Below, piece by piece: positions 302 to 19,033 of a stretch of 64,000 bases of DNA (positions within the stretch are counted from its first letter, which is position 1; each line of letters opens with the position of its first letter). The stretch lies in assembly GCA_944381215.1 (NCBI GenBank), contig CALWKF010000007.1:1173-65172 (forward strand), read 5' to 3'. The translations under genes were made by a program, and so were the position numbers. The notes beneath the pieces are model-generated. The model was not told the origin of the DNA and did no database searches. It worked only from the letters and a program-made list of their open reading frames with translations. The stretch is from an uncultured Clostridia bacterium. Its GTDB lineage: Bacteria > Bacillota > Clostridia > Christensenellales > UBA1242.

Positions 302-1026
302 TGCAAAAAATTTTAGTAATTGGCGGGCCTACTGCGGTAGGAAAGTCCGATTTAGCCCTTGATTTAAGCGATTTAATTAATATGGAAATCGTTTCCGCAG
401 ACTCGGTTCAGGTATATAAGGGAATCGAAATTGCCACTTCAAAACCTACAAAACAAGAGCAAATGAAGTGTAAACATCATTTAATTAACATCGTGTCGCC
501 GTTTGACACTTTTAATGCATATGATTTTGTAACAAACGCCAAAACCGCGATACAAGAAATAGCAGAGCAGGGGAAATTGCCCGTAATTGTAGGCGGGACT
601 GGGCTTTATATAGATAGTTTACTCTATGGTTTTGACTTTGAAACTACTAAAAAAGAGCCCCAATACGATTATAAATTCATACTTTTGAACGATTCGCGCG
701 ACAATATCTACCGAAAAATCAACCTTCGTGTCGATAAAATGCTAAATAATGGCCTAGTGTCAGAGGTCAAAGCCCTTAGAAATATGGGTGTAAATTTAGA
801 AAATCAGTGTATGCAGGCCATAGGATATAAAGAGATCTATATGTTCCTAGATGGTGAGATTGAATATAATGAAATGGTGAATCTCATAAAGAAAAATACG
901 CGAAATTATGCAAAAAGACAACTTACATGGTTTAGGCACGAAAAAAATATTGAAGAATGGCAAGTTGCCGACAAGGAAAAACTCCTAAATTACTTAAAGA
1001 AAACCTATATAGAATACAAAAAATAG
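301..1026 (+). CDS. miaA: tRNA dimethylallyltransferase
   Basis: P-loop GPTAVGKS, SADSVQVYKGIEIATSKP, and a QLTWFR-type C-terminus. Length is typical for the family. Confidence 0.95.
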   Translation: MQKILVIGGPTAVGKSDLALDLSDLINMEIVSADSVQVYKGIEIATSKPTKQEQMKCKHHLINIVSPFDTFNAYDFVTNAKTAIQEIAEQGKLPVIVGGTGLYIDSLLYGFDFETTKKEPQYDYKFILLNDSRDNIYRKINLRVDKMLNNGLVSEVKALRNMGVNLENQCMQAIGYKEIYMFLDGEIEYNEMVNLIKKNTRNYAKRQLTWFRHEKNIEEWQVADKEKLLNYLKKTYIEYKK

Positions 1027-1050
1027 CACAAAATTTTGTGCTATTTTTAT
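1023..1050. terminator. Bidirectional intrinsic terminator between miaA and lexA
   Basis: Perfect palindrome atagcacaaaa/ttttgtgctat followed by a T-run. An A-run on the other side serves the minus strand. Confidence 0.7.
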
Positions 1051-1072: not shown

Positions 1073-1702
1073 TTATAGAGAGCGAATCAAGCCCACAACT
1101 TTGCCAATTATTGAAACTTCGTCGAAGTACATTGGCTCCATAGTTGGGTTTTCGGGTTGTAATCTATATCTGCCGTCTTCTTTGTAAAAACGCTTGATTG
1201 TAGCACTATCATCGATGAGTGCGGCTACAATTTCGCCGTTTTCAGCGGTCTCTTGCTTGCGAATTACTACTTTATCGCCATTTAATATTCCTGCATTTAT
1301 CATACTATCGCCGACAACATTAAGTATAAAAAGATTGTTACCCTTAAATAAATTTGCAGGCATGTAGTACGTATCCTCGAAATTTTCCGTTGCCAGCATC
1401 GGCTGACCTGCCGTAATTTGTCCTAAAACAGGAATAGGGGAGTAGTTTTTGATTATTTCTAGGCTTTCTTGTGTGTCAGGTTGCTCAGGCGATAAAATCT
1501 CGATTGCTCTATTTTTGTATGCACCACGGCGGATTTTGCCTTGTTCCTCCAAGTAATTTAGATAGTATGTAATGGTTGAGGTCGAGCTAATGTTTAACGC
1601 AGTGCACATCTCGCGCACAGATGGCGGAAATCCATTCTTTGCCTTATATTTTTTGATAAATTCGTACAACTGCTCGGTTTTGTTAAATATTCTTTTCTGC
1701 AT
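1073..1702 (-). CDS. lexA: LexA repressor (S24 peptidase)
   Basis: N-terminal wHTH (PPSVREMCTAL..STSTI) and a C-terminal S24 domain (GDSMINAGILNGD). Start moved to MQKRIF, with AAGGAG upstream. The tracked ORF start has no RBS. Confidence 0.93.
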   Translation of the reverse strand: MQKRIFNKTEQLYEFIKKYKAKNGFPPSVREMCTALNISSTSTITYYLNYLEEQGKIRRGAYKNRAIEILSPEQPDTQESLEIIKNYSPIPVLGQITAGQPMLATENFEDTYYMPANLFKGNNLFILNVVGDSMINAGILNGDKVVIRKQETAENGEIVAALIDDSATIKRFYKEDGRYRLQPENPTMEPMYFDEVSIIGKVVGLIRSL

Positions 1703-1731
1703 TAAATGAATTTCTCCTTGAATTTTTGATA

Positions 1732-1760
1732 ATTTTAGCACAAAAAACGTCTTATGTCAA
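1732..1760 (-). promoter_or_regulatory. Candidate sigma-A promoter of lexA (TTGACA-17-TAAAAT)
   Basis: Read on the minus strand: TTGACA at 1760-1755, a 17-nt spacer, TAAAAT at 1737-1732. Confidence 0.5.
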
Positions 1761-1802: not shown

Positions 1803-2849
1803 TTATTCTGACCTGAGTTTTACCTTGTTTGCAGCTGACCTGCGTATATCCTCGCTCATTGCAGCGTAATGCTTTTTAGTCGTATTTATATCTTTATGGC
1901 CCAACACATCCGCTACAACATAGATGTCCTGAGTCTCGCGATAAAGATTCGTGCCATATGTACTGCGTAGTTTGTGTGGACTGATATTTTTAAGAGGTGT
2001 AACAAGCTTGCTGTATTTTTTGACTAAATTCTGTACAGCGCGCGTTGAAATACGCTTTTTTTGCAGGGACAAGAATAGTGCGTGCTCGTTCGGGTCAAGG
2101 TCTGGAATGCGTGCGCGGTCCTCTAAATACTTCTTTAATGCATCTGCCACTTCATCCGAAAAATACAGTACAACCTGTGCGCCACCTTTTCGAATCACTT
2201 TAAAACCATTTATGCTAAAATCAATATCATCCACATCGAGCCCTACACATTCGCTGACACGTATACCCGTTCCTAACAGTAACGCCAAAATGGCGTAATC
2301 GCGTGATTCTGTGTGCCTATGGAAAGCTTGCTGAGTAGGGGATAGTGCATAGCCTGTTTCAGCCATGTCAAGCAAATCTACCATTTCGTTGACTTCGAGC
2401 CTCACAATGTTTTTCTCGTGAAGCTTGGGCAGGTCGACTTTCTCCGTTACATTTTTATCAATTTTCTCTTTTTTAAAATAATAGCCGAAAAACGAACGTA
2501 GTGTGGACAACTTACGCGACTTTGCCTTTTCATTATTATGATATGTTTTACCATTAAATTCGTATACCGTAAGATAGTCGAGGAAATTTTCAATCTGTGT
2601 CGCATCGATTGTGTTTAGGTCCATTAGCGAAATTTGTTTAGGGGTACGGCCTTGAAATTGGGGTAGCTGGGTACACAAATAATGGAAGAAAATCCTCAAA
2701 TCGTACGCGTAATTTAAGCGAGTCAATGGCGTAGTTTGATTTTCAACTCCTACAAAAAATTCACTACAAAAATAGGGTAGATCTTGTTTGAGTTCACGGA
2801 TGCGCGTCGTGTTGTTATCATTACGTTCTACATAATATTTTTCAGACAT
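1803..2849 (-). CDS. Tyrosine site-specific recombinase, XerS-like
   Basis: Catalytic set is present: GIRVSE (Arg), RKGG (Lys), HKLRST (His-x-x-Arg), LGHKD, KHY (Tyr). Size (348 aa) and the N-terminal LPYF..EFF...FFHYL region resemble streptococcal XerS as I recall it. Confidence 0.8.
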   Translation of the reverse strand: MSEKYYVERNDNNTTRIRELKQDLPYFCSEFFVGVENQTTPLTRLNYAYDLRIFFHYLCTQLPQFQGRTPKQISLMDLNTIDATQIENFLDYLTVYEFNGKTYHNNEKAKSRKLSTLRSFFGYYFKKEKIDKNVTEKVDLPKLHEKNIVRLEVNEMVDLLDMAETGYALSPTQQAFHRHTESRDYAILALLLGTGIRVSECVGLDVDDIDFSINGFKVIRKGGAQVVLYFSDEVADALKKYLEDRARIPDLDPNEHALFLSLQKKRISTRAVQNLVKKYSKLVTPLKNISPHKLRSTYGTNLYRETQDIYVVADVLGHKDINTTKKHYAAMSEDIRRSAANKVKLRSE

Positions 2850-2877
2850 AAAAAACCTCGCTTTAACTTTTTCTTAA

Positions 2878-2906
2878 ATTATAACAAAATCAAGTCTAAA
2901 TGTAAA
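2878..2906 (-). promoter_or_regulatory. Candidate promoter of the recombinase gene (TTTACA-17-TGnTATAAT)
   Basis: Read on the minus strand: TTTACA at 2906-2901, a 17-nt spacer, and an extended -10 tgtTATAAT at 2883-2878. Confidence 0.5.
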
Positions 2907-3048
2907 ACAATTTTTCAAAGTATGCGTAAAATCCTACTAATTTAAAATGAGCCTACATAGAGTTAAATGTGATTTTTGTCGAGTATTAAAAGTTTTTGAC
3001 AGATAGTACTATGCAAAATATATGTAAGTCTCTGTCTCATTAAATTTA

Positions 3049-3079
3049 AAATTGATTCTATACAGAGTTGATAAAAATT
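3049..3079 (+). repeat. Direct repeat R1 (aaattgattctatacagagttgataaaaatt)
   Basis: 30 of 31 nt identical to R4 at 3519-3549. Confidence 0.9.
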
Positions 3080-3173
3080 AAATTGACTTACACGTCGATT
3101 TTTTGACAAATTAATTTGAGACAAATCTACATGACCAAATGGTCATCTAAAAATCGAATCTCGGCTCTCAACG

Positions 3174-3200
3174 CATTTTAAATCGACTCTGTAAGATAAC
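3174..3200 (+). repeat. Degenerate repeat R2 (cattttaaatcgactctgtaagataac)
   Basis: Shares cattttaaat + YgaYtYtRta with the extended R4 (3513-3549). About 17 of the first 20 positions match. Confidence 0.5.
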
Positions 3201-3241
3201 AATCTATATATCATTATATAGAAATAATATGAAGAGCTATT

Positions 3242-3268
3242 CATTTAATTTAATTAACTCTGTGTCAG
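3242..3268 (+). repeat. Degenerate repeat R3 (catttaatttaattaactctgtgtcag)
   Basis: Resembles R2. The core aattaactctgtgt aligns with aaatcgactctgta. Confidence 0.4.
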
Positions 3269-3393
3269 CGCATTATAAATCAAGCTAATACAAAGTGATT
3301 TTACAAAATGTTATTAGGCCCAAATAATCAATTAAACACGAAAATTTTGTTAAAAAACGCTAAAATCGGGCATTTTACCCGTTTTTAACCCCT

Positions 3394-3427
3394 AACTATG
3401 CGTAAAACTTGTATTTTACGCATAGTT
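3394..3427. other. Perfect 14-6-14 palindrome; candidate Xer/dif-type recombination core (11-6-11 inner site 3397-3424)
   Basis: aactatgcgtaaaa cttgta ttttacgcatagtt. The arms are exact reverse complements. It is not followed by a T-run, so it is unlikely to be a terminator. Confidence 0.4.
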
Positions 3428-3518
3428 TACGGACATCAAAAAGAAAATGTCCCCCATTATTGTGCAGATTTCTAATTAAAATTTATAAGTATTATGCTAC
3501 TAAATTATAGTACATTTT

Positions 3519-3549
3519 AAATTGATTTTATACAGAGTTGATAAAAATT
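3519..3549 (+). repeat. Direct repeat R4 (aaattgattttatacagagttgataaaaatt)
   Basis: Partner of R1. The two copies are 470 bp apart and in the same orientation. Confidence 0.9.
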
Positions 3550-3585
3550 TAAACCCAATTTTACATAGTTTTTTGATAAGGAGCC

Positions 3586-4257
3586 TTAACTATTTCTATA
3601 TAGAGAAAGCAAATAGTCGCCTTTTTTTAGGGCTTTTCTACGTACGGCGAAGTCTGGCAAAACGCTCTTGACCACACCCCAGAATAGTTGAGAGTGATTC
3701 ATTTGAACGAGATGCGCCAACTCGTGTACAACCACATAATCAATTAAATCGTGTGGGACCATAATTAATCGCCAATTAAGTGACACAAGACCGAGGCTAT
3801 TACACGAACCCCAGCAACCACGCGCGTTACTGAGTCGTACTTTATTTGGTGAAAGTTGCATTAAGTTTGAAAAGTATTCCACCCTCCCCCACAAAATCGG
3901 AGCAGCGACTTTTTTATACCATTTAATTAGATTTTTTTCTAAATCATCGCTATATTTTTGAGGGACAATGCAGTATTCATTTTCTAATGTGATGTGTTTA
4001 ATTTTATTATCAAAAACCACGTGGTAAACTTGCCCGCAAAACAAAATATCTTCGTGATTAAAAATGCTCTTGTTTAAATTTTGATTTTCGAGCACACGCT
4101 TACGGTGTAGATTTATCCAATCTTCTTTCTTTGCTATTACGGTTTGAATGTACTCGAGCGAACACCTGCGCGGTGCTTTAATAATTAACTCACCTTGTGG
4201 CGAAATCGAAATAGAAATTGATTTTCTATTAGTCCTAATTAAAATATCTATGTTCAT
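3586..4257 (-). CDS. DUF45/YgjP-like metal-dependent hydrolase (M48-type HExxH)
   Basis: HELAHLVQMNHSQLFW motif near the C-terminus. Start moved to MNIDILIRTNRKS, which has AGGAGAG upstream. Confidence 0.8.
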   Translation of the reverse strand: MNIDILIRTNRKSISISISPQGELIIKAPRRCSLEYIQTVIAKKEDWINLHRKRVLENQNLNKSIFNHEDILFCGQVYHVVFDNKIKHITLENEYCIVPQKYSDDLEKNLIKWYKKVAAPILWGRVEYFSNLMQLSPNKVRLSNARGCWGSCNSLGLVSLNWRLIMVPHDLIDYVVVHELAHLVQMNHSQLFWGVVKSVLPDFAVRRKALKKGDYLLSLYRNS

Positions 4258-4394
4258 TTCCACTCTCCTATTGTGAAAGTAAATATAGCACGATTTTATT
4301 TTAATGGCAAACAATTTGCTTTGAAAAATTAGTTAAATTTCCTTAAAACTTGCTTAAATCAATATGCATAGTACCGCATAGTACTATATTTTGT

Positions 4395-4415
4395 GTATTA
4401 TGCAATGCATAATAC
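4395..4415. promoter_or_regulatory. 21-bp perfect palindrome, candidate PadR operator
   Basis: gtattatgca a tgcataatac lies immediately upstream of the padR-like promoter. Confidence 0.5.
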
Positions 4416-4425
4416 TACAAAATAA

Positions 4426-4454
4426 TTGACAAAATGCAAAGTTTAATATACAAT
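4426..4454 (+). promoter_or_regulatory. Candidate promoter of the PadR-like gene (TTGACA-17-TACAAT)
   Basis: TTGACA at 4426-4431 and TACAAT at 4449-4454, about 30 nt upstream of the ATG. Confidence 0.55.
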
Positions 4455-4483
4455 AAGGGAGACTCAAAAGGGAGAAAAAGACT

Positions 4484-6010
4484 ATGAGTGGAAGTCAAAT
4501 TAACAAACTAATTCTGCAAACCTTACAGACTGGCGACAAGTATGGCTTGGAGATTATTAAGGACATCGAGGAAAGCACGCATGGTACAGTAGTTGTTAAG
4601 CAACCCAGTTTATACAGTGCACTTTCTCGTATGGAGAAAAAGGGACTCATTTCATCGTTTTGGCGTGATAGCGAAATCGGTGGACGTCGCCATTATTATT
4701 CCTTGACAAGTTTAGGTCAAGAGGAAATTAAAGAGAAAAAGAAACCTGTGGATATGCAGGAGTTTGCAAACCCAGACCGCTTTGCTGTTGAGCCCGAACC
4801 TGAACCTAAAATAGAACCTATTATGGAAACTAAAATTATAGAGCCACATGTTGAACCCAAACCTGAAAAAATTATTAGGCAGGAACCTGAAAAACCTCAG
4901 GTTGTATTCGAGCAGTTTGACCCTAACAGAATTCAAGATGTTGAAAAACATAGCTTTACGCAACAAATGCGCGAATATGTTGAACCTGAAACAATTGAGG
5001 AAATTGCGCCAGAGCCTGCACCGATTCAGCCCGCCCCTACCCCAATTTTTGAGAAGAGTGAGCCACAGCCAAAGTCTGAACCAGAGCGCATAAACTTTAG
5101 TTCATACAATGATGAACCCGATGTTGAAATTATTCACGAAGAGCACAAGCCCAGCCGTAATGAAATCAATTATAAGGATATTTTAGGGGACCTTGATGCA
5201 GACTTGCAAACAAACGAAGTTACTCCATCCTCTTATGAGAGTATAAAGTCTGAGTTTGTGCAAACTAGAGAGCCTGTCGAGGAAAAACCTGCGCCTAGAA
5301 AGCAGTCCGAATATTCAAAACAAATTGCTGAGATTTTACGTTCTGAAAAGAAAGTTGAGGCTGAGGAAAAACACGTTACTGACCTTTATGCTCAGCAAAA
5401 TAAAGACCTTATGGATGAAATTAATAGGCGTTATAATCTCGGCAAAAAGCCCACACCTGCTAATAACGATCATAAAATTGCACCGACTTCCGTTGGTTAC
5501 ACCCACATCAAGCAGGAAAACATTGTAGTCAAGCCATACTCAAAGACCGAAAAAGTGGCATTTAGCAAAAAGACATTCATTGACAAAAACAAATTTAACT
5601 TATGCCGTGCTGGAATTATGACTGTGATTTTTATGATTGAGTTGATTTTGTCCTACTTTTTACTGAGAGATGCTGGGATGATTTATGAGCCACATGCATT
5701 CCTATATATATTGTATGGTGTACTAGGATTTACATACTTTGGTGTAATGGCCTTGCTGACATTCAAAGACCTAGATAAAAAGACCCGAATTAAAGACATA
5801 AATTGGGGCATGAATTTACTTTATAGAGTGTTGCTTGCTGTAGTCTTAGCAACATTTGTAATTGCAATGTGCCTATGCTTTGGTATGACAGCACCGCTAG
5901 AACTTGAATTCTTTACTTTATGGTACATCCCCGCCCTTGCTATTGCTGATTTATTACTTTCATGGGTGGTCGGACTAATTATGTATTCTACAAAAATATT
6001 TAGAGTATAA
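4484..6010 (+). CDS. PadR-family transcriptional regulator with Pro/Glu-rich linker and C-terminal multi-pass membrane domain
   Basis: N-terminal PadR wHTH (GDKYGLEI...PSLYSALSRMEKKGLI...RRHYYSLTSLG). The linker of about 280 aa is low complexity. The last roughly 140 aa contain four hydrophobic segments. Confidence 0.8.
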   Translation: MSGSQINKLILQTLQTGDKYGLEIIKDIEESTHGTVVVKQPSLYSALSRMEKKGLISSFWRDSEIGGRRHYYSLTSLGQEEIKEKKKPVDMQEFANPDRFAVEPEPEPKIEPIMETKIIEPHVEPKPEKIIRQEPEKPQVVFEQFDPNRIQDVEKHSFTQQMREYVEPETIEEIAPEPAPIQPAPTPIFEKSEPQPKSEPERINFSSYNDEPDVEIIHEEHKPSRNEINYKDILGDLDADLQTNEVTPSSYESIKSEFVQTREPVEEKPAPRKQSEYSKQIAEILRSEKKVEAEEKHVTDLYAQQNKDLMDEINRRYNLGKKPTPANNDHKIAPTSVGYTHIKQENIVVKPYSKTEKVAFSKKTFIDKNKFNLCRAGIMTVIFMIELILSYFLLRDAGMIYEPHAFLYILYGVLGFTYFGVMALLTFKDLDKKTRIKDINWGMNLLYRVLLAVVLATFVIAMCLCFGMTAPLELEFFTLWYIPALAIADLLLSWVVGLIMYSTKIFRV

Positions 6011-6040: not shown

Positions 6041-7142
6041 TTGTTTTAGTTTGTGCTTTTTTCTGTTGCTTTTTTATAGATTTAGTTTTACTTTTTGTAG
6101 CCTTTGCATTCTTTTCAATATCATCGTCTTTCGGGCGAGTTAAAGTTTTTTCAGGGAGTAATTTAATATCGCGATTAATACCAAGTTGCATAAATAACCT
6201 GTCTTGCTTGCTCATAAACTTTTTCTTTAAGAAAGTTGCCATTTTATTAATAATTTGTTCAATTTGGTCTTTATATCGATATGCAACCCAAAATAGAATA
6301 ATGAGTGTTACAATTAGTATGGCCCAAACGATGAGTCCCCAGCCACTGAATGGAATAATTTCTCCAGACCCTAGGTAGCAAGTCATAAATATACCAATTG
6401 GTCGAGTTAAAATAATTGTTGTTATAAAGAATCGGTATGTCATAGCAGTCATACCAGCGACCAAGCATAACACATCATCAGGAAAGAGCGGGAATAACAT
6501 CATAAGGAAGAAAATATACTTACCTTTATCGAATAGTAAGGCCGAGTACTTTTTCATAGATTTCTCACCCACTATCCAAGAAACAACTTTTTCTCCAAAC
6601 TTGTCACCAAGCCAAAAGGCAAAGAGAGAACCAGCCATAATTCCTACTAAACTTAACAGAGATGCTACAAAAGGTCCAAACAAAATTGTACCAACTATTG
6701 TTGTTGCCATTGCTGGAAGCGGAATAAAGGTTACTTGCAAAAATTGAAGCAGACAGTAAATTAGGTATTTCCACCACCCTACCTCGCTTAATGCTGCTTG
6801 CAATTTATCTTGATCTGTAAGATATGAAATTAAATCGAGGACATCGAACAGATAGTAACCCCATGTAAAAATCGCAGCAATTGCGATTATTACAAAAACG
6901 GCCTTTAACCAACCCATTCGTTTAGTAACTAAGAAAACTATTCCTAGTCCCATTAGTAGCCCCGTTGTAATAGAAGCAGTTACTAACAGCCATTTGCTTG
7001 CGGTAATTAGGCTACTATAACACCAAATATCTAAGGCACCGAATATGATAATGCACGAAATTAGCAAGACAGAAGTGTGTGTGAATATGCCAGCAGGGCT
7101 TTTTTCTACAATCTTTTCATTATTTTTATTTTTATGTGTCAT
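6024..7142 (-). CDS. TVP38/TMEM64 (DedA-related) family membrane protein with Lys-rich tail
   Basis: Polytopic protein with motifs VTFIPLP...GTILFG...FWLGDKFG and LFPLFPDDVLCLVAGMT. Confidence 0.7.
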   Translation of the reverse strand: MTHKNKNNEKIVEKSPAGIFTHTSVLLISCIIIFGALDIWCYSSLITASKWLLVTASITTGLLMGLGIVFLVTKRMGWLKAVFVIIAIAAIFTWGYYLFDVLDLISYLTDQDKLQAALSEVGWWKYLIYCLLQFLQVTFIPLPAMATTIVGTILFGPFVASLLSLVGIMAGSLFAFWLGDKFGEKVVSWIVGEKSMKKYSALLFDKGKYIFFLMMLFPLFPDDVLCLVAGMTAMTYRFFITTIILTRPIGIFMTCYLGSGEIIPFSGWGLIVWAILIVTLIILFWVAYRYKDQIEQIINKMATFLKKKFMSKQDRLFMQLGINRDIKLLPEKTLTRPKDDDIEKNAKATKSKTKSIKKQQKKAQTKTKKMLK

Positions 7143-7264: not shown

Positions 7265-8197
7265 TTGAGTGAAAAAGTTTTGAATATTGTGGGCCTAAGC
7301 AAATCTTACGGCGATCGCAAAGTGTTAAGAAATCTCAATTTCGAAGTGTATGCTGGCGAGATATTTGGCTTTATCGGCCCAAATGGCGCGGGTAAATCAA
7401 CGTTAATTCGTATTATTAGTGGGCTTACACCACCTACCGAGGGTGAAGTTTTTATCTGTGGCGACTCTGTACAAAAGAACTTTGAGCGTGCCGTTTCACA
7501 CATCGGTGTCGTTATGGAAAATTGCCAACTGTATTCGTATATGACGGGACGTCAAAATCTTAATTACTTTGCAAGTCTAGTTAAAGGCATTACAAAAGAT
7601 AATATAGAGAATGTTATTAGGACTGTTGGGCTCGAAAATCGTATTGATGACCGTGTACGCACATATTCGTATGGTATGAGACAGCGTTTAGGACTTGCCC
7701 AAGCCTTGCTTAATAACCCAAAGTTGTTGATTTTGGATGAGCCAACAAACGGACTCGACGTAAACGGAGTCATTGAGTTACGTAGGACATTAAAAATTCT
7801 GTCAGCTAAGAATAATATGGGTATATTTATAAGTAGCCACGTATTATCTGAAATGGAGCAACTATGTGATACTGTGGCGGTTTTTGACCGTGGTAGCATT
7901 TTGGAAATGCGCACAATGGACGACTTCCGCAACGACAGCGGTGCACAGAAGAGGTTTAGAATTAGGGTCGATTACCCCAACTATGCAGGTAAAATTATTT
8001 CGTTAAAATACGGCCTCGATGTAGAGCTTGCTGGCAATTCGGTGCTCATCCCCTACATTCCCGAAAAGTACGACGATATTATTTCTGACCTAATTAGACG
8101 CAACTTAACAATTTATGGCACGACAGTTGTTTCAAAGAGTTTAGAGGACATTTATCTAGAAATATTAAAAGAACGCCGTTATGGAAAAATTTCTTAG
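7265..8197 (+). CDS. ABC transporter ATP-binding protein
   Basis: Walker A GPNGAGKST, signature YSYGMRQRL, Walker B LLILDEP. TTG start preceded by AGGAGG. Confidence 0.93.
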   Translation: MSEKVLNIVGLSKSYGDRKVLRNLNFEVYAGEIFGFIGPNGAGKSTLIRIISGLTPPTEGEVFICGDSVQKNFERAVSHIGVVMENCQLYSYMTGRQNLNYFASLVKGITKDNIENVIRTVGLENRIDDRVRTYSYGMRQRLGLAQALLNNPKLLILDEPTNGLDVNGVIELRRTLKILSAKNNMGIFISSHVLSEMEQLCDTVAVFDRGSILEMRTMDDFRNDSGAQKRFRIRVDYPNYAGKIISLKYGLDVELAGNSVLIPYIPEKYDDIISDLIRRNLTIYGTTVVSKSLEDIYLEILKERRYGKIS

Positions 8198-8207
8198 GAG
8201 TAAATCT

Positions 8208-9998
8208 ATGTCAAAAATGAGTAGATTATTGCGTGGAGAATTAAATAAAATTTTAATGCGCCCGATTTTGTATATAATCACGGGTGTCATTGTAATTGCC
8301 TTATTTTGTTCTGCCCTATTACTAAATATGGAAGATCGTGGGGATACGATGCTACATATAGACGGAGGCAGCAAAACTGAGGTAATGACCAACTTTACCT
8401 CTGCGCCAAATATGAATAAAAGTATTGCGGACAACATTGTAAACACCGCTTTTTCGAGATTAAGTTATTATGAGAGCGTTAACACATCGGCCGAAACTAC
8501 CGTTACGGCACAGTTAAAGAATTTGATTGACAACTCGGACTCGCGTCGTGGTGCTAGGCGATTGTTAAACGACTATGTTACTAGTATCCAGTATGCTGAA
8601 AACCCCGAAAATCCCTCGAACATCAGCGAGTTAAACAACATTCGCCTCGAAATGCTCGATGTATTAAACGACGCACGTACGATTTTAGTAAATGCCACTA
8701 ATGAGTCTATGCCCACAGTATTGATGCCGAATAAATCTTTCCAAGATTATATAACCTTAATTTCGGATGTCTCGTTTTACTTGCGTGCGGATGGTGCTGA
8801 CTTAAACTTGGTCGAAACCCACCGCGACATATATAATAATATTAGTACAGCAAACGGCTTTGCTGATATCGAAGGCATATCGTATTTTGACAAGCTCTAC
8901 TATATTACTAGTAACGATATCACAAACATAACGCTTGCAGATGAGACTATTAAGAATCTAACCACTAAATACGAAACCTCAACAGCTTTTATGGCTGAAA
9001 CGCTTTCAAATATCACAGCATACAGTTCTGATGAAGATGTTACGACTGGCACATTAAAGGAAGAAATTTTAAAATACTACTATACTGCAAATCAATACTC
9101 TACCCTTGTTAGTGATTCAATATATTTTGAACCAGTCAAATATTTTAACGATTCACAAGCTCATGTTTACATCGGTTATAGCGACGTTCATTTGTATCAA
9201 ATTCAAGAGCGCATTACTACAAATAACTATTTAATCGAAAATAATCTCACATCTAATCAATTTTCATCGGTGTTTACTCCAACAATGTCCTCTGGTCAAG
9301 AGGTTGGCGCATTTGACCTAGTTTATTTTGGCCTAGAAATTTGTAGTTTTATAATACTAATTTTCTGTGTCGTACTGGCAGGCGGAATGATTGCGGGAGA
9401 ACAATCATCAGGCACTCTAAAAGTGCTAGCAACCCGCCCATTTTCTAGGAACAAAATTCTTACCTCAAAAATTCTAGCATCCTTGATTTTCGGTACAATT
9501 TTCCTGGTATTCAGTGCGCTAGTTCTGTTTATTATAGGTTTTGCCGTCTACGGGCTTGACACGACACCAATACTTGCAGTATTCAATGCTTCCAGTGCCT
9601 TTATAATCTCGCCTTTCCTACTGATACTAATTTATCTTGCACTGTTGATTGTCAAAATTTTGTTCTACGTTTTACTCGCGACTATGATATCAACTGTATT
9701 TAGGAGCAATATCGGTGCTGTTACAATTTCGATATTCATCTACTTCTTGACCGCAATTTTTGCAGTACTATTTACACAATCAGGTTGGTATGCATTCCTG
9801 CCATTCGCTGGAATTGACTTCTTTAAATTCTTTGGTGGTGCCTTTGCGAGCGACCTAGCGAACCCGCTCAGCATCGCCTTCTCGAGCCCGATGTTCTACA
9901 ACTCAAGCCTGCTTGCGAGCGTACTGATTGTGTCCGTTACGATGATTATACTAACAATTCTAAGTTACGTTGTATTCAAAAAGCGCGAAATCAAATAA
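8208..9998 (+). CDS. ABC-2-type permease with a large N-terminal extracytoplasmic domain
   Basis: One N-terminal TM segment, roughly 340 aa of non-hydrophobic sequence, then about six TM segments. Translationally adjacent to the ATPase. Start set at MSKMSRLL, with AGGAG 7 nt upstream. Confidence 0.7.
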   Translation: MSKMSRLLRGELNKILMRPILYIITGVIVIALFCSALLLNMEDRGDTMLHIDGGSKTEVMTNFTSAPNMNKSIADNIVNTAFSRLSYYESVNTSAETTVTAQLKNLIDNSDSRRGARRLLNDYVTSIQYAENPENPSNISELNNIRLEMLDVLNDARTILVNATNESMPTVLMPNKSFQDYITLISDVSFYLRADGADLNLVETHRDIYNNISTANGFADIEGISYFDKLYYITSNDITNITLADETIKNLTTKYETSTAFMAETLSNITAYSSDEDVTTGTLKEEILKYYYTANQYSTLVSDSIYFEPVKYFNDSQAHVYIGYSDVHLYQIQERITTNNYLIENNLTSNQFSSVFTPTMSSGQEVGAFDLVYFGLEICSFIILIFCVVLAGGMIAGEQSSGTLKVLATRPFSRNKILTSKILASLIFGTIFLVFSALVLFIIGFAVYGLDTTPILAVFNASSAFIISPFLLILIYLALLIVKILFYVLLATMISTVFRSNIGAVTISIFIYFLTAIFAVLFTQSGWYAFLPFAGIDFFKFFGGAFASDLANPLSIAFSSPMFYNSSLLASVLIVSVTMIILTILSYVVFKKREIK

Positions 9999-10018
9999 AA
10001 TTTAAATTTTATCAACTA

Positions 10019-10063
10019 AAAAAGACACTTAAAATTGTAATATACAGTTTCTAGTGTCTTTTT
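10019..10063. terminator. Long imperfect hairpin, bidirectional terminator
   Basis: aaaaagacact...agtgtcttttt with flanking T- and A-runs. It lies between the convergent permease and rnhA units. Confidence 0.6.
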
Positions 10064-10224
10064 TAATTTATTTTGTTGTGTTTTTGTTCTATTGAATTCC
10101 CATCCATACTAATTTTTATTACCGAGTTGCCTATGTAGTCAAATATTGTGAAATAATCTTTTGCTGTATCGATGCATAGTGTTGTATCGGTATTTGGCGC
10201 ATCCTCGACTTTTCCACTTAGCAC
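10063..10224 (-). CDS. Small hypothetical protein (53 aa), below the ORF-track cutoff
   Basis: GTG start 10 nt after AGGAG. Translation: MLSGKVEDAPNTDTTLCIDTAKDYFTIFDYIGNSVIKISMDGNSIEQKHNKIN. It sits between the rnhA stop and the terminator. Confidence 0.35.
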   Translation of the reverse strand: MLSGKVEDAPNTDTTLCIDTAKDYFTIFDYIGNSVIKISMDGNSIEQKHNKIN

Positions 10225-10251
10225 TACTCACTTTCTCCTAAATCTTAAATA

Positions 10252-10710
10252 CTATTCATCCTGTTTTTGATTATTTAAAAAGTTATCAACTTCACCTCGT
10301 GCTAGAGCATCACATCGATTATTATACTTATCGGTACTGTGCCCTTTGACCTTATGCCAATATATCGTGTGCTTGCGCGTAAATTCGTCAATTTGTTGCC
10401 AGAGGTCAAGATTTTTTACAGGCTTTTTATCAGCAGTTCTCCATTCCCTAGCCCTCCAATCATCTATCCAGTGCTGTTTAAAGGCATTTACAATATAGGC
10501 GGAATCACTGTACAAATCAACTTCGCATGGTTCCTTTAACTTTCCCAGTGCCTTAATAACAGCCATTAACTCCATGCGATTATTAGTTGTGTTGTTCTCA
10601 AAACCACTGAATTCTTTTTCTATATTATTATAAATAAGTACACACCCCCACCCTCCAGGACCAGGGTTAACACTGCACGCGCCGTCGGTGTAGATTGTTA
10701 CTTTTTTCAT
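10252..10710 (-). CDS. rnhA: Ribonuclease HI
   Basis: YTDGACS..NPGPGGWG, NNRMELMA, YSDSAY, and H..D at the C-terminus. Start moved to MKKVTIY because the longer ORF runs through the tRNA. Confidence 0.9.
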   Translation of the reverse strand: MKKVTIYTDGACSVNPGPGGWGCVLIYNNIEKEFSGFENNTTNNRMELMAVIKALGKLKEPCEVDLYSDSAYIVNAFKQHWIDDWRAREWRTADKKPVKNLDLWQQIDEFTRKHTIYWHKVKGHSTDKYNNRCDALARGEVDNFLNNQKQDE

Positions 10711-10769
10711 AACTATTACTCCATATTTTATTAATAAAAAACGACCCAAACATACTGTTGAGTCGAAAG

Positions 10770-10843
10770 TGGCAGGGGAGCAGAGAATCGAACTCTGACC
10801 GATGGTTTTGGAGACCACTACTCTACCGTTAAGCCACTCCCCT
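10770..10843 (-). tRNA. trnW: tRNA-Trp (anticodon CCA), 3' CCA encoded
   Basis: Hand-folded cloverleaf. Acceptor AGGGGAG/CTCCCCT, anticodon loop CTCCAAA, T-arm CAGAG TTCGATT CTCTG. Close to B. subtilis tRNA-Trp as I recall it. Confidence 0.9.
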
Positions 10844-10856
10844 AAAAAGTATTATA

Positions 10857-10885
10857 ATTGTACTAAATAAAATTGAATTTGTCAA
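10857..10885 (-). promoter_or_regulatory. Candidate promoter of tRNA-Trp (TTGACA-17-TACAAT)
   Basis: Consensus -35 at 10885-10880 and -10 at 10862-10857, just upstream of the tRNA 5' end. Confidence 0.6.
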
Positions 10886-10912
10886 CCATATTTAGCAAAT
10901 AATACCTTTAAA

Positions 10913-11755
10913 TTAGACATTCTCCATAAATTCTAATAAATTTCTGCCAGCAAATCTAGTAGCAACCACAGAGTTAAACTTGCGCGAAATTTGTTCAAGC
11001 AAAGGCGGTAACCCATTGTAATCAATATCAAAGCCCACAGGATTGCACTCACCTGTCCCATTAAAATCACTACCGATTCCTATATTTTCATCTCCAATAA
11101 TTGAAATGATGTGGTCAAGGTGTGTAAGTATTGTTTTATTAGTTGCTGGTCTGTCGCTTAGTAAAGTTGAATATAGACATAGCCCAACAAAGCCTCCGCT
11201 ATCCCTAATCAAACACAATTGCTCGTCATCCAACGCGCGCGGAATATTGTAGACACTTCTACTACTTGTATGTGAGCAAAACAGAGGATATTTAGTCGTA
11301 TTCACGAACTCCATAAATGACAATTTGTTTAGATGCGCTGTATCAATTAAAATATGATTTTGTTCCAAAATTGAAATAACTTCACGACCAAATTTTGTTA
11401 GCCCTCCGTTACCATAAGCCCCACCCGCGAGGCGATTATCGTAGTTCCAGGTTAATGTTACCGCAAACGGATGAAAAGCTATAATTTCATCTAAATCGTG
11501 ATAATTTTCAATAAAACCTATGTTTTCAATAGTTGGTACAGCAATTGTGCTATTTTTTATTATATCAAACTTACGCTTCATTAAAGTTAGAATATTTCTA
11601 GAACTTAACTGCCGTAGCATTTTTTCACTAACATAAAAGGCCGTAAAAATTTTTACGACCTCGTTATTTATACAAAAATTTTTTAAATAGTTTTCAAAAT
11701 CGAAAACAGTGTCAAAAGTAGTCAACAAATCGTTGTGAGAATCACAAATCTGCAT
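10913..11755 (-). CDS. Membrane-dipeptidase (M19) family protein
   Basis: N-terminal DSHNDL, then HLDH and GIGSDFNG motifs. Confidence 0.75.
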   Translation of the reverse strand: MQICDSHNDLLTTFDTVFDFENYLKNFCINNEVVKIFTAFYVSEKMLRQLSSRNILTLMKRKFDIIKNSTIAVPTIENIGFIENYHDLDEIIAFHPFAVTLTWNYDNRLAGGAYGNGGLTKFGREVISILEQNHILIDTAHLNKLSFMEFVNTTKYPLFCSHTSSRSVYNIPRALDDEQLCLIRDSGGFVGLCLYSTLLSDRPATNKTILTHLDHIISIIGDENIGIGSDFNGTGECNPVGFDIDYNGLPPLLEQISRKFNSVVATRFAGRNLLEFMENV

Positions 11756-11766
11756 TATTTTACCTC

Positions 11767-13365
11767 TTATTTAGCGTAGTCTACAGCTCTTGACTCTCTG
11801 ATTACATTGACCTTAATTTGCCCAGGATATTCCATTTCCTCTTCAATCTTTTTAGCAATATCTCGTGCTAACAACATTGCCTGATCGTCCGAAATTTCCT
11901 CAGGTTTTACAATCACGCGAATTTCTCTACCAGCCTGAATTGCATAAGCCTTTTCAACGCCCGCAAAACCACTCGCAATCTGCTCTAATTTCTCTAATCG
12001 CTTTACATAATTTTCAATTGACTCACGACGGGCCCCTGGGCGCGCACTCGAAATTGTATCAGCCGCCTGTACGAGTACAGCTTCAACACAACTAAACTCA
12101 ACATCGCCATGATGCGCCTCAATACAGTTAATGACCTTCTCGTTTTCTTTGTACTTGCGCGCAAGTTGCGTACCAATGGACACGTGCGTTCCTTCCACTT
12201 CGTGATCAACCGCTTTGCCAACATCATGTAACAAACCACCACGACGAGCGACCATCTCATCACATCCAAGTTCGCTTGCTAGCATACCCGCAATAAAAGA
12301 CACCTCAATAGAGTGTTTTAGCACATTTTGTCCGTAACTTGTGCGGTATTTTAGGCGTCCAAGCGTCTTAACTAGCTCTGGATGCATACCAATAATGCCA
12401 GTTTCGAGCACTGCAGATTCACCTGCCTCTTTAATTTCACGCTCGATGTCTTTACGCGCCTTAGCAACGGTCTCCTCAATGCGCGCAGGGTGAATTCGGC
12501 CATCTTGAATGAGCTTGGTAATTGCAATACGAGCGACCTCTCGGCGTATTGGGTCGAACCCTGAAATTACTATCGTTTCGGGCGTGTCATCAATAATTAA
12601 ATCAACTCCAGTAGCCATTTCGATAGCCTTTATGTTGCGACCTTCCCTACCAATCAAACGCCCTTTCATATCGTCATTTGGTAAATCAATTGTCGATACA
12701 GTAGTTTCACTAGTCAAATCAGCAGAGTATTTCTGTATAGCATTAGATATGATTTCAGTCGCCAATTTGTGCGAGTTATCTTTAAGCTCTTGCTCGATTT
12801 CGCGCAATTTTAACGCAGAGTCGTGTTTTGCCTCATCAGATATCTGTGCGACCAACTTTTCCTTTGCTTCTTCACGGGACAGTCCAGCGACTTTTTCTAA
12901 TTCTTTTACGATCTCGCCACTCTTTTTTTCTAACTCATCTTGGCGATTGTTTAATTTTTTTTCTTGATTTTCTAACTTTTCCTTGTAGTTATCCAGGGCT
13001 TCACTTTTCTTTTCTAACGATTGTTCTTTGTTATTAATAAATTCTTCTCTCTCTAAAAAACGGCTATTTAACTTTTCCATTTCAATGCGACGTTCTTTGA
13101 GTTCGTTCTCTGTCTCAGTCTTAATCTTTAAAGATTCCTCTTGTGCTGAGAGTCGAGCTTCTTTTACAATTGTCTTGGCCTCCAAATGTGCATCTTCAAT
13201 AATGCTAGAAGCGGAATTTTTTGCATTGTTAATTTTCTTTATCACAATTGCTCTAAAAATTAAAATTCCCACTACTGCGCCTACTATAACACAACCTAAA
13301 ATAGCGACTACCAAAACAGCAGTGCTTATTTGGACACCAAGCAACCCTACAAATGAGTTGAGCAT
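11767..13365 (-). CDS. rny: Ribonuclease Y
   Basis: N-terminal TM segment, coiled coil, KH domain (GREGRNI), HD domain (HDVGK). Confidence 0.95.
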
Positions 13366-13527
13366 TGGTATTTCCTCTCTTTTAAATTTATTGAAAAATC
13401 CTAGGGGATTGATATAAAACTTGCATTTTATATGCCTTATAATTTTAATTTATAAGAAGTAAAAAGTCAAGTTAAATTTTATTAAATAAGGTGTAAATAT
13501 AATTATTTACAAAATTTTATCAAATAA

Positions 13528-13553
13528 ACAAAAAAGATGCTGTTTAAGCATCT
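13528..13553 (-). terminator. recA intrinsic terminator (overlaps stop codon)
   Basis: agatgct taaac agcatct followed by TTTTTTG on the minus strand. Confidence 0.7.
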
Positions 13554-14602
13554 CCTTCTACATTGTTCTCATTTTCGATAACTATATCTTGTGTACTCTC
13601 TTTTGGAGCCAGTTCATCTTTGATGCGATCCTCAATTTCTTCATAAACAGCAGGATTGTCAGCCAAGTACTGCTTAACGTTTTCTTTACCCTGCCCGATT
13701 TTCTCGCCATTATAGGCAAACCAGCTACCACTTTTTTGAATAATGCCGTATTCCAGTGCCAGGTCAAGAATACAACCCTCGCGGGAAATACCTTTACCAT
13801 ATATAATGTCGAATTCACAAACCTTGAATGGTGGCGCAAGCTTATTCTTAACCACCTTGACTTTTGTTCGGTTACCAATTATCTCATTGCCGTCTTTAAT
13901 TACATCGGTCTTGCGCACATCGAGGCGGATACTAGAATAGAATTTTAGTGCCTTTCCACCAGTTGTGGTCTCGGGATTACCAAACATGACTCCGACTTTT
14001 TCACGCAACTGGTTAATAAAGATAACACATACATTTGATTTGTTGATGTACCCAGTTAGTTTTCTCATTGCCTGACTCATAAGTCGAGCAAGTAAACCAA
14101 CATGTGCATCACCCATTTCGCCATCAAGTTCTGCCTTTGGCGTAAGGGCCGCTACTGAGTCGATAATAATCAAATCAATACTACCACTGCGCACCAAACT
14201 CTCGGTAATGTCCAAAGCCTGCTCACCATTGTCGGGCTGAGAAATATACAAGGAATTGATATCCACTCCCAAATTGCCAGCATATACAGGGTCAAGTGCG
14301 TGCTCTGCGTCGATGAATGCAGCGGTACACCCCATTTTCTGCGCTTCTGCGACTATGTGAAGAGCCACCGTTGTCTTACCACTAGATTCGGGACCATATA
14401 TCTCTACTATGCGTCCACGCGGTACACCGCCAATTCCTAATGCTAAATCGAGAGTCAAGCACCCAGTCGGTATTACGTCCACAACTTGTCTTGCGTTGTC
14501 CCCGAGGCGCATGATAGCACCCTTACCGAATTGCTTTTCAATTTGAGCAATTACCTGTTCTAGATTTTTTTGTTTGTCGTCAATTTTTTCTTTTTCTGCC
14601 AC
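13544..14602 (-). CDS. recA: Recombinase RecA
   Basis: Unmistakable RecA sequence ([18 protein letters not shown]). GTG start. Confidence 0.98.
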
Positions 14603-16381: not shown

Positions 16382-19033
16382 TTATAGTTGTCCATCAGAG
16401 AATAACTCATTATATTTTGCTTCATCAATCAAGATTTGGCGATTTTTATTTGTAGGGTCAGGCGTCGAGATAAAGCCATGTCGCTCCATTTGGTCGACTA
16501 TGCGCGCCGCACGTGCATAACCTACCGAATACCGACGTTGAATAGCAGAAATCGAGCCAGTACCCGCTCTAATAAATTCAAGTAAGGCTTTTGGTAAAAT
16601 CGGGTCGAGTTCATCCCCTCTTTCGACATCGCCACCGTCATCACTTCCGCCATTATGGCCATTACCCTTGCCCTCCAAAATTTGTTTGGTGCGCGCATCG
16701 TCAAAGTCGCTGTCGTTGTTGTTCTTAATAAAGTCGACAATATTTAATACTTCGGTATTAGTTATAAATGGACATTGAATACGCACAGGCTCAGGCAAGT
16801 TTTGCGGTGCATACAACATATCACCACGACCAAGTAGTTTTTCAGCACCACCCTGGTTAATAATAGTGTTAGAGTCGGCAAAGTTGTTTACTGCAAACGC
16901 AATACGAGATGGTAAGTTTGCCTTAATTGTACCCGTAATAACATTTACAGAAGGACGCTGTGTAGCAAGGATTAGGTGGATACCCGCGGCACGCGACAAC
17001 TGAGCAATACGCATAATTTTCTCTTCTAATTCCTTTCTAGCCATCATCATGAGGTCTGCTAACTCATCTACCACTATTACAATACGCGGTAGTTTTGGTT
17101 CGCGCCCCTTGTAAACAGCCTCCAAAGAGTTATACTCATTAATATCGCGGACTTTGAGTCTTTGGAATGTGTCAAAGCGGTCATCCATTTCCTTAATCGC
17201 CCAGTCAAATGCACTCAGTGCCTGCTTCGGCTGACAGATTACCTCAGGTGTTAATAAGTGTGGTAAGCCATTGTAACTTGTAAACTCCACGCGCTTTGGG
17301 TCGATTAGAATCAACCTTAAGTCATCTATGCCGAGTTTATAAATTAAGCTAATCAGTATTACATTTAGGCACACCGATTTACCCGAACCTGTTGCACCTG
17401 CTACCAACAGATGTGGCATAGCAGCTAAGTCGCAAACCTTAATTGTGCCCGCAATATCTTTACCCAGGGCAACAGTTAGAGGAGATTTGCTATTATGAAA
17501 TTCTGGCGAATTAATGATATCATTTAACCCAATTGTAGCAATTTTTTCGTTTGGAATCTCGATACCAACAAGGTTTTTACCAGGAATAGGTGCTTCAATA
17601 CGCACACCACCATACGACTTCATCATCATTGCAATGTCATCGCTGTGCTGTGAAATCTTTTTAACCGAGATACCTGCGGGCATTTGAATTTCGTACCGAG
17701 TAACAGCAGGGCCTCGAGTAATACCTACAACAGTAGCGGAAATTTTAAAGCTATCTAGCGTGTCTTCTAGCACATGAGCGCGTTGCTTGAAGTCCGCTTC
17801 ATTTCCGTCTTGCTTACTCGACTGCGTTGTAAGCAGGCTTACAGGAGGGCGAACATACGGGCTCGGACGCTTGTAAGTTGTGGTCGGGTTTGGAGTAGGC
17901 TTTGTTTGTTGCATTTCAAGTTGTGTGGTCTTTTGCTCCTGCTCCCTAGGTTTTAGGTCGTGATTAATATTGTTAAGTGGCTGAATGTTTGCCGACGAGG
18001 TGTTATTAATCATTTTATTTACATTGTTTATGATTGCCTCACTCTCTGCTGGTGAATGTTGCTCCACATTTATCGATTCATTGACCTTTTCGTCAAAAGA
18101 TTCAAAGTTAAACTTGTCTGCATTGTGATTAACCTCAGCACTTTGATAACCGCTAGGAGTGTACTGGGTGTTAGTTTGATAATTGCGAGACTCGAAAGTG
18201 CTGTTGTTTGTCTTATTTACAAACTCATCAAGCGTTATAGCATCCTCGCGTTTAGGCGGTGTAGGCTGTGCTTTGTTAACAAGGTTTTGGTAATCACCTC
18301 CAAACACTTGATTTGCAATATTGTCGTTACTACTCTTCCCAACGGTAACCAATTCATTGTTAGAGTTAAGGCCAAGAGTAAGAGATTCTCCCGCCTGTTT
18401 TTTCATGCTCTCAATTAGGCTTTGCTTTCTGCTAATTTGTTTTTCAACATTCACTGCTTCCTCTTGAATGCGGGTGTTACCTTTTTCAATTGGATAACTT
18501 ACAGCACGAGCATTTAACTTCTTATAATCGCTCATTTTTAAGAAATAATCTACCATAAAAGCTACGCAGATTATTGCACCGATTGCAAATAGTATATACG
18601 CGCCAGTATAGCCAAACAATGCGCTAAACCCATAGGCAAATATTCCTGCAATTACTCCACCAGCTGTATTCTTAGAGGCGTATGTATCCCCAAGATACTC
18701 CCCCATTCCCATGTAGTCCATATCAGTTAGAGCGGTTTGCAATACACAAATTAACAAGAAGTACAACACACAAATACAAATAATATAATTTTTTGCAATT
18801 ATATACTTTCGATTAGTGAGTAGCAAAGCCCCTATTACAAGGGCTACCACGAGAACTGGGTACGTGGCCATACCGAATGCACCTAAAATAAAGGAACGGA
18901 TAAAAGGCAAAAAGTTAAATATAAGGCAAATCAGTAAGAAAACAGAGCAAACCAAAACAGCGATGCCAATTACAGCACGCCTAGAGAGTTTATTTCCAGG
19001 ACCTCCTACATTTCTGTCGGTATAATTTTGCAA
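16382..19033 (-). CDS. ftsK: DNA translocase FtsK/SpoIIIE
   Basis: N-terminal TM segments, low-complexity linker, motor domain (GATGSGKS, VVDELADL), and a C-terminal gamma wHTH. TTG start after GGGAGG. Confidence 0.95.
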   Translation of the reverse strand: MQNYTDRNVGGPGNKLSRRAVIGIAVLVCSVFLLICLIFNFLPFIRSFILGAFGMATYPVLVVALVIGALLLTNRKYIIAKNYIICICVLYFLLICVLQTALTDMDYMGMGEYLGDTYASKNTAGGVIAGIFAYGFSALFGYTGAYILFAIGAIICVAFMVDYFLKMSDYKKLNARAVSYPIEKGNTRIQEEAVNVEKQISRKQSLIESMKKQAGESLTLGLNSNNELVTVGKSSNDNIANQVFGGDYQNLVNKAQPTPPKREDAITLDEFVNKTNNSTFESRNYQTNTQYTPSGYQSAEVNHNADKFNFESFDEKVNESINVEQHSPAESEAIINNVNKMINNTSSANIQPLNNINHDLKPREQEQKTTQLEMQQTKPTPNPTTTYKRPSPYVRPPVSLLTTQSSKQDGNEADFKQRAHVLEDTLDSFKISATVVGITRGPAVTRYEIQMPAGISVKKISQHSDDIAMMMKSYGGVRIEAPIPGKNLVGIEIPNEKIATIGLNDIINSPEFHNSKSPLTVALGKDIAGTIKVCDLAAMPHLLVAGATGSGKSVCLNVILISLIYKLGIDDLRLILIDPKRVEFTSYNGLPHLLTPEVICQPKQALSAFDWAIKEMDDRFDTFQRLKVRDINEYNSLEAVYKGREPKLPRIVIVVDELADLMMMARKELEEKIMRIAQLSRAAGIHLILATQRPSVNVITGTIKANLPSRIAFAVNNFADSNTIINQGGAEKLLGRGDMLYAPQNLPEPVRIQCPFITNTEVLNIVDFIKNNNDSDFDDARTKQILEGKGNGHNGGSDDGGDVERGDELDPILPKALLEFIRAGTGSISAIQRRYSVGYARAARIVDQMERHGFISTPDPTNKNRQILIDEAKYNELFSDGQL

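Follow-up and report, generated by a model that had tools for sequence, protein, structure and literature searches.

We describe a perfect inverted repeat in a 64,000-nucleotide stretch of DNA (hereafter, the window) from an uncultured member of the Christensenellales, which is very probably the site (dif) at which chromosome dimers are resolved by a single-recombinase Xer system. The window spans positions 1173-65172 of contig C7 (CALWKF010000007.1), which belongs to a draft metagenome-assembled genome (MAG) of 22 contigs and 1,224,198 bp that is 94% complete. The palindrome is read as dif because of its anatomy and uniqueness, its linkage to the gene of a core recombinase, the lack both of XerC/XerD and of any canonical dif, its place at the terminus of replication, the conservation of its arms, the presence of an FtsK with a gamma domain, the reuse of the same site by mobile DNA and its likeness to difSL, the site of the XerS recombinase. 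Judged by sequence, the system is of the single-recombinase Xer/dif kind and closest to XerS/difSL. The coordinates of the features discussed are collected in Table 1.

The palindrome, AACTATGCGTAAAA-CTTGTA-TTTTACGCATAGTT, is built of two 14-nt arms, aactatgcgtaaaa (3394-3407) and ttttacgcatagtt (3414-3427), which a repeat finder reports as 100% complementary and 6 nt apart, and of the centre cttgta (3408-3413). This 14-6-14 arrangement has the generic geometry of Xer core sites (~28-34 bp, with inverted arms of ~11 bp around a centre of 6-8 bp). An earlier reading of the window, made from the letters alone (the sequence-only reading), had described an exact 14-6-14, or 11-6-11, inverted repeat lying 545 bp upstream of a 348-aa recombinase; the sequence and the repeat finder bear out the repeat, and the coordinates of the open reading frames (ORFs) bear out the distance, which is counted from the recombinase start codon. 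Both the 34-mer (at up to 5 mismatches) and the inner 28-mer (at up to 4 mismatches) occur only once in the draft genome. Few perfect inverted repeats reach such dimensions: the window contains just two whose arms are 14 nt or longer and whose spacer is 0-10 nt, and 30 dinucleotide-preserving shuffles gave a mean expectation of 0.03 per window.

The gene linked to the palindrome encodes a tyrosine recombinase, which was placed relative to XerS, XerH and XerC/D by the scores of curated hidden Markov models rather than by a tree. Its best NCBIfam model is XerS, which it matches over model positions 3-357 of 360, and the XerC, XerA and XerD models give 152-160 bits. The sequence-only reading had said that the protein resembles XerS, and this stands as far as the best family and the full model length are concerned; by the curated threshold the protein is not a member, since it scores 199.8 bits and the cut-off is 267 bits. 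In a control of this model, one of 14 named genomes, presumably that of Lactococcus lactis, scored above the cut-off. All catalytic residues, R197 (GIR), K221 (IRK), H292 and R295 (HKLR), H318 (LGH) and Y328 (KHY), are present, as found by motif and by alignment to XerA. A pairwise sequence search of the recombinase against proteins of known structure returned XerA at 4e-19, XerD at 1.3e-16 and XerH (5jjv/5jk0) at only 1.1e-6, and a family-level homology to XerH was rejected on these values.

Five tyrosine-recombinase matches are present in the genome, and the one at the palindrome is the sole match of Xer grade. The XerC/XerD models, which have cut-offs of ~330 bits, give three of the remaining four no more than 89 bits, and by these scores the three look like mobile-element integrases; the last match, which was not scored, is a C-terminal fragment of 118 aa located where a contig ends and is similar to one of the three. 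No XerC or XerD was found among these five matches in the 94%-complete genome, and the relatives from the same genus give the same picture. Nothing in the genome lies within 8 mismatches of the dif sites of E. coli or B. subtilis or of L. lactis difSL (PMC2965235). The combination that the sequence-only reading had named as speaking against its proposal, canonical xerC/xerD plus a standard dif at another place, was therefore looked for in this genome and neither part of it was found. The FtsK encoded in the window is the only strong FtsK match in the genome and has complete alpha, motor and gamma domains; its gene is located 13 kb from the palindrome on the same replichore side, and by analogy with known systems FtsK is expected to be the activator and positioning factor for Xer recombination here.

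The location of the palindrome at the replication terminus is strongly supported. The distance between dnaA and the site was measured in three relatives assembled as single contigs, and the site is found 53.1% of the way round the chromosome in G040 (2,560,186 bp; dnaA at ~911 kb, site at 2,270,629), 50.7% in G045 (2,422,126 bp; dnaA at 1,254,057, site at 25,325) and 53.5% in CP091734.1 (1,529,829 bp; dnaA at 594,170, site at ~1,412,486). In G045 the cumulative GC skew reaches its maximum at a distance of 0.2 kb from the site, in G040 at 1.1 kb and in G004 at 7 kb, and in G001 maximum and site share a 5-kb bin; at the site in relatives, the GC skew turns from positive to negative and the long ORFs pass from the plus to the minus strand. 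For the genome under study, the reverse complement of contig C2 was joined to the left end of C7 by synteny with G001:C1, which gave 192 kb in total. Along this joined sequence the skew rises over 127 kb, peaks at ~8.4 kb in window coordinates and falls over 56 kb, and gene orientation flips there. In the window itself, mutL and miaA are on the plus strand at the left and the long ORFs from ~10 kb rightwards are overwhelmingly on the minus strand, in agreement with the flip of coding polarity that the sequence-only reading had noticed at this locus; the skew extremum and the switch of orientation that it had predicted for a terminus are at or near the site in four relatives and in the joined genome.

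A palindrome at a skew switch might also be the target of some other terminus protein, Ter/RTP-like or MatP-like, and lie beside the recombinase gene merely by position. We consider this exceedingly improbable, because Ter and matS sites occur in multiple copies around the terminus whereas this palindrome is present in a single copy, because it has the core-site geometry of tyrosine recombinases, and because it co-inverts with the recombinase gene about the terminus: the gene is to the right of the site in G004 and to the left of it in the window, with the linkage kept.

This linkage and the arms themselves are conserved well beyond the genus. The recombinase has a single-copy orthologue in 58 of 61 relatives. 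These relatives cover the genus, its family and, across the order Christensenellales, 25 families, and close ones among them are MAGs from human and ruminant guts. The pattern TATGCGTAAAA-N6-TTTTACGCATA (at up to 3 mismatches) is present in 33 of the 61, with one site per genome apart from three extra hits of 3 mismatches, and in all but one of these 33 genomes the best hit is 30-3000 bp upstream of the recombinase gene; the reversed pattern, used as a control, matched in one of the 61. Among 80 further loci taken from a species-level genome collection, 53 have a match to TATKCGYAAAA-N6-TTTTRCGMATA with no more than 3 mismatches, and all of these matches are upstream of the gene, by 16-3283 bp. 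The distance is commonly 30-200 bp outside the family of our organism and 400-750 bp in its genus. In other Clostridia orders, orthologues of 47-60% identity have the same adjoining site, and in a more distant group (31-36% identity) the arms are TATTCCTAAAA, nearer to difSL. Conservation beside the recombinase, by which the sequence-only reading had proposed to judge the site, thus holds in the genus, the family, the order and other Clostridia orders.

The logo of the sites, AACTAT[G/T]CG[C/T]AAAA - nACA[A/G][G/C] - TTTT[A/G]CG[A/C]ATAGTT, has conservation spanning 14 nt in each arm. Position 4 of the arms is symmetric (G:C or T:A) in 48 of 52 distinct sites, the 6-bp centre is variable, and the arms stay nearly invariant while the identity of the recombinases drops to ~50%. 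Such a pattern is the signature that one protein reading both arms would leave, not that of a drifting RNA stem. This matters for the reading of the palindrome as an RNA hairpin, either the intrinsic terminator of the gene of a YgjP-like protein (3586-4314) or a structured 5' leader element. A stable RNA fold is indeed predicted, with -18.7 kcal/mol (z-score -6.4) on one strand and -21.8 kcal/mol (z-score -5.0) on the other, and the palindrome is located 160 bp downstream of the YgjP-like stop codon. A role as a hairpin is nevertheless extremely unlikely, since neither strand has a T-run after the palindrome, it is not among the terminators predicted by the terminator scan, a scan of the whole window against Rfam gave nothing at the palindrome (its sole match is a tRNA at 10773-10843), and it is the arm sequence and not merely its pairing that is conserved at ~50% recombinase identity, with the loop varying and the neighbours changing. 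An intrinsic terminator in the strict sense, a G+C-rich stem followed by a T-run, was rejected despite the stable fold because the T-run is missing and the scan does not list it, and here the sequence-only reading, which had judged a terminator role unlikely, was right.

Several observations weigh against the assignment of the palindrome to a XerS-like dif system. The recombinase is below the XerS cut-off, none of the 61 relatives passes the curated XerS model, and in the pairwise search the protein is nearer to the structures of XerA and XerD than to those of XerH. The strict site pattern has no hit in 28 of the 61 relatives; a looser consensus recovered some of these sites, including that of G040, which is located 119 bp upstream of the recombinase gene. 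In the genome under study the skew peak is ~5 kb off the site and not exactly on it, the genome is a draft MAG, and the junction between C2 and C7 is inferred from synteny. Finally, a search of four genomes for 7- and 8-mers that are skewed towards the site and might orient FtsK returned many skewed purine-rich words in counts made without a model of coding and base skew, one example, GAAGAGG, being distributed 27:1 in the genome under study and 32:1 in G004.

The region between the palindrome and the recombinase gene has a history of its own. The ORF-free gap of 736 bp holds a degenerate tandem duplication of ~470 bp, of which the 42-nt repeats at 3041-3082 and 3511-3552 are part; colinear global alignment of the two duplicates scores 152.5, compared with 91.2 +/- 8.2 (maximum 113.5) in 200 shuffles, i.e., ~7 standard deviations above. 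The distal duplicate keeps the intact palindrome and the gene-proximal one keeps one arm only. It may have arisen as a duplication of dif that later decayed, or as the scar left when a small element inserted by Xer recombination, and in both cases the decay of one copy is expected because two intact direct copies of dif would delete the intervening DNA. The half-site TATGCGTAAAA that the sequence-only reading had spotted at 2921-2931 is indeed there and forms part of the lone arm, which is found just upstream of a predicted recombinase promoter with the -35 hexamer at 2906-2901 and the -10 hexamer at 2883-2878 of the minus strand. Most orthologues in the genus have a TTTACA...TATAAT-like (ataat) layout upstream of them. 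Several members of the genus have a lone arm, in one orientation or the other, at 73-85 bp upstream of the point where the recombinase gene starts, and in other families the complete site sits roughly where the lone arm sits here. By these comparisons the lone arm would be either the relic of an ancestral promoter-proximal dif or a half-site for autoregulation, and the surviving arm may act in autoregulation of the recombinase gene.

The same observations raise the question whether the palindrome is mainly an operator, of the recombinase itself, of the PadR-type protein encoded at 4484-6010 or of LexA, and not a site of recombination. Apart from the lone arm directly upstream of the -35 hexamer in the genus, such a function is suggested by the complete site being 16-160 bp from the recombinase start, inside the promoter region, in several other families, and by GCATAGT-like words that are also found upstream of the padR-type gene. 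An operator, however, need not track the GC-skew switch or sit opposite dnaA, and the distance between site and gene varies from 16 to ~3300 bp. At distances beyond 1 kb, site and gene are separated by one to three ORFs and the site is still kept, and therefore the site is not simply a promoter element. Moreover, phage and plasmid-like contigs that do not have the gene carry the same 34-bp site. We consider it very unlikely that the palindrome is only an operator; autoregulation may well be a second role that does not replace its role as dif.

The contigs just mentioned show that the site is not confined to chromosomes. A scan of IMG/VR with the exact pattern found it on 24 contigs (L154-L177), and these hits are true copies of the site because most of them have the AAC...GTT flanks, which were not part of the search, or close variants of them. 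In 12 of the 24 contigs the site is located upstream of a tailed-phage gene for the large terminase subunit (TerL), at a distance of 0.3-1.6 kb, and at least three PHROG TerL families are represented among these terminases; examples are L155 (site at 389, TerL at 802-2550), L169 (site at 3131, TerL at 3309-4568) and L175 (site at 1278, TerL at 2270-3982). The recombinase gene is present within the fetched stretch in one of the 24. Some tyrosine recombinase is encoded by 7 of 23 viral records, most of which are fragments, and the generalisation that all viral carriers lack an integrase, as integrative mobile elements exploiting Xer (IMEX) would, fails on these seven. The phages may rely on the Xer enzyme of their host to circularise or integrate their genomes or to resolve multimers. 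In the relative G084, the site is also found on a plasmid-like contig of 12,007 bp (G084:C17, L149), which carries two copies (5528-5555 and 11096-11123) and encodes Rep_1, a rolling-circle replication protein, an AEP primase and a resolvase. An HTH_17/DUF3967 gene adjoins the site at 5528-5555 and also the site at 3200-3227 of a second small contig (G084:C86, L151), and the sites of G084 may be cer-like sites of multimer resolution with an accessory DNA-binding protein.

The 24 viral contigs and the plasmid-like contig, together with the degenerate ~470-bp duplication and lone arm that flank the site in the window, could be taken to mean that the palindrome is only a bacterial attachment site (attB) for phages and plasmids and that the recombinase is a domesticated integrase of a mobile element. 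This is highly improbable. Integrases are patchy in their distribution, whereas this recombinase is a single-copy core protein in 58 of 61 genomes across the order, and it is found beyond the order as well; the site is at the terminus in every genome tested; and the borrowing of host dif sites by mobile elements is a known corollary of dif/Xer systems (PMC5357621 for IMEX; bioRxiv 10.1101/2021.09.12.459815 for Legionella).

That the recombinase binds the site, where it would cleave, in what order strands would be exchanged and that FtsK is needed are points inferred from established knowledge of the Xer family, and resolution at a dif site of this kind would proceed as follows. Two recombinase monomers would bind the two identical arms (TATGCGTAAAA, extending to AACTATGCGTAAAA), and two such sites on a dimeric chromosome would synapse at the closing septum. 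FtsK, which has a gamma domain, would bring the sites together and license the reaction. The recombinase would then cut and exchange strands at the borders of the asymmetric 6-bp centre via a Holliday junction, and this exchange would convert the dimer into two monomers. It is possible, although we put this forward only tentatively, that the module exceeds a plain analogue of XerS by combining three properties, namely a strand order set by the centre, promoter autorepression with a tie to the SOS response, and the use of the host Xer enzyme by phages. With identical arms, the order of strand exchange would be fixed through the 6-bp centre alone. By way of the lone arm upstream of the -35 hexamer, the recombinase may repress the promoter from which it is expressed, and the adjacency of lexA could link dimer resolution to the SOS circuit. 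Through the 34-bp site just upstream of their terminase genes, tailed phages of these hosts would, by analogy, have their genomes circularised, resolved or integrated by the Xer enzyme of the host. In phage P1, the Cre-lox system is an analogue of such use.

Among characterized systems, the closest one is XerS/difSL, which is known from streptococci and from lactococci (Le Bourgeois et al. 2007, cited by PMC5357621; Nolivos et al. 2010, PMC2965235). The L. lactis site is ATCTTTCCGAAAAACTGTAATTTTCTTGACA (PMC2965235), its left part being ATCTTTCCGAAAA-ACTGTA-ATTTTC..., and difSL is described as a 31-bp site with imperfect arms of unequal length and a central region of 11 bp (PMC5357621). In both systems one recombinase of ~350 aa (356 aa in XerS) replaces XerC and XerD, the site is directly upstream of the gene so that the two form a module at the terminus (545 bp apart in the window), FtsK is present, and an A-tract, ~6 bp and a T-tract are arranged between CG-containing arms; the XerS profile is also the one that scores best, over its full length. 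The systems differ in that the score of ~200 bits falls short of the cut-off of 267, as it does in all 61 relatives, in that the arms of the palindrome are perfect and equal (14 nt, with a 6-bp spacer) whereas those of difSL are neither, in that the host belongs to the Clostridia (Christensenellales) and not to the Lactobacillales, and in that the site is displaced by 400-750 bp from the gene in the genus under study, several members of which keep a lone arm at the promoter.

The XerH/difH system of Helicobacter and Campylobacter also relies on a single recombinase (354-362 aa), the gene of which is near the site (PMC5357621), and the TATG...AAAA layout of its left arm, with the A-tract beside the centre, is that of our palindrome; the left arm of difH is AGTTATGAAAA (PMC5357621) and its difSL counterpart is TTTCCGAAAA (PMC5357621; PMC2965235). 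The arms of difH are, in contrast, imperfect repeats, the phylum is another one, and the likeness of the recombinase to the XerH structures is weak compared with that to XerA. The XerL/dif system of Legionellales likewise has a single recombinase, and its long uninterrupted inverted-repeat arms are unusual among dif sites (bioRxiv 10.1101/2021.09.12.459815); it came to light through a mobile element that borrows the site (same source). The distance between dif and xerL exceeds 400 kb in Legionella, in contrast to the linkage seen here, and the two recombinases are related by the tyrosine-recombinase fold only. With the XerC/XerD systems of E. coli and of B. subtilis, including their 28-bp dif, the locus shares the 11-6-11 core, the single copy at the terminus and the FtsK partner, and it differs from them in having one recombinase instead of two and symmetric arms. 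The XerD arm of E. coli dif is TTATGTTAAAT, and in canonical dif TTATG is beside the central region. The likeness to a XerD-type arm that the sequence-only reading had seen is superficial, since TATG is distal and the A-tract proximal in our palindrome; the likeness that it had seen to difH survives, as the arrangement matches that of difH and difSL.

The single-recombinase systems described so far are XerS of streptococci and lactococci, XerH of epsilon-proteobacteria, XerL of Legionellales and XerA of archaea. A search of the literature at the level of full text turned up no publication that deals with Xer in Christensenellales, with XerS-type systems in Clostridia or with such a gene-plus-site pair in this group, and the NCBI label of the homologues is merely 'tyrosine-type recombinase/integrase'. 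The locus and its orthologues in Christensenellales and several other Clostridia orders point to a further widespread XerS-related system in abundant and mostly uncultured gut bacteria. The site is a sequence landmark for the terminus that can be of use for closing and orienting MAG contigs and for estimating replication rate from coverage, and it predicts the point of integration or resolution used by phages and plasmids of these hosts. A naturally symmetric dif also lends itself to the study of how strand exchange is ordered by a homomeric Xer enzyme.

Table 1. Features of the dif locus and of its surroundings, in window coordinates
Feature	Position	Strand	Description
Candidate dif site	3394-3427		14-nt arms and 6-bp asymmetric centre CTTGTA; 11-6-11 core at 3397-3424
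XerS-like tyrosine recombinase, 348 aa	1803-2849	-	Pfam Phage_integrase, 8.4e-35; NCBIfam XerS NF003462, 199.8 bits
Predicted sigma-70-type promoter of the recombinase gene	2878-2906	-	TTTACA, 17 nt, TATAAT, TG extension; 11/12 matches
Lone dif arm	2918-2931		AAGTATGCGTAAAA; 12 bp upstream of the recombinase -35 hexamer
Degenerate gene-proximal duplicate	2900-3110		Partner at 3376-3586 with the intact site; 90% identity, spacing 470
lexA	1073-1741	-	TIGR00498, 3e-60; Pfam LexA_DNA_bind and Peptidase_S24; directly downstream of the recombinase gene, same strand
FtsK DNA translocase	16382-19033	-	Pfam FtsK_alpha, FtsK_SpoIIIE, FtsK_gamma

The gene neighbourhood of the recombinase is partly conserved. 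Its adjacency to lexA is retained in 41 of 80 related loci and may tie dimer resolution to the SOS circuit. Further to the left, on the plus strand, are the genes of MiaA and of MutL, the latter identified by motifs in its translation and not by a family search. The second perfect palindrome of the window (1019-1048, AAAAATAGCACAAAATTTTGTGCTATTTTT) is T-flanked, lies between the convergent miaA and lexA and resembles an intrinsic terminator that acts in both directions. The genes of the YgjP-like metallopeptidase and of the PadR-type regulator are found to the right of the dif locus. Upstream of the latter gene, GCATAGTAC is tandemly repeated (4366-4384), and the 12-mer ATAGTACTATGC, found at 3003-3014, recurs there as its reverse complement (4376-4387). 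These words probably represent a family of PadR operators that is unrelated to the dif arms save for the shared GCATAGT.

Another genome has inverted repeats of a different kind. The extra weak hits of the site pattern in G178:C1 (3 mismatches each) were rejected as dif and are parts of a longer inverted repeat instead. In the stretch G178:C1:48000-62000 (L152), this repeat (~6582-6660 and 8220-8296) flanks a 1.7-kb segment that overlaps the 3' end of an ORF of 2180 aa (7457-13999, minus strand) and an ORF of 186 aa, and this arrangement makes it a candidate invertible, shufflon-like segment.

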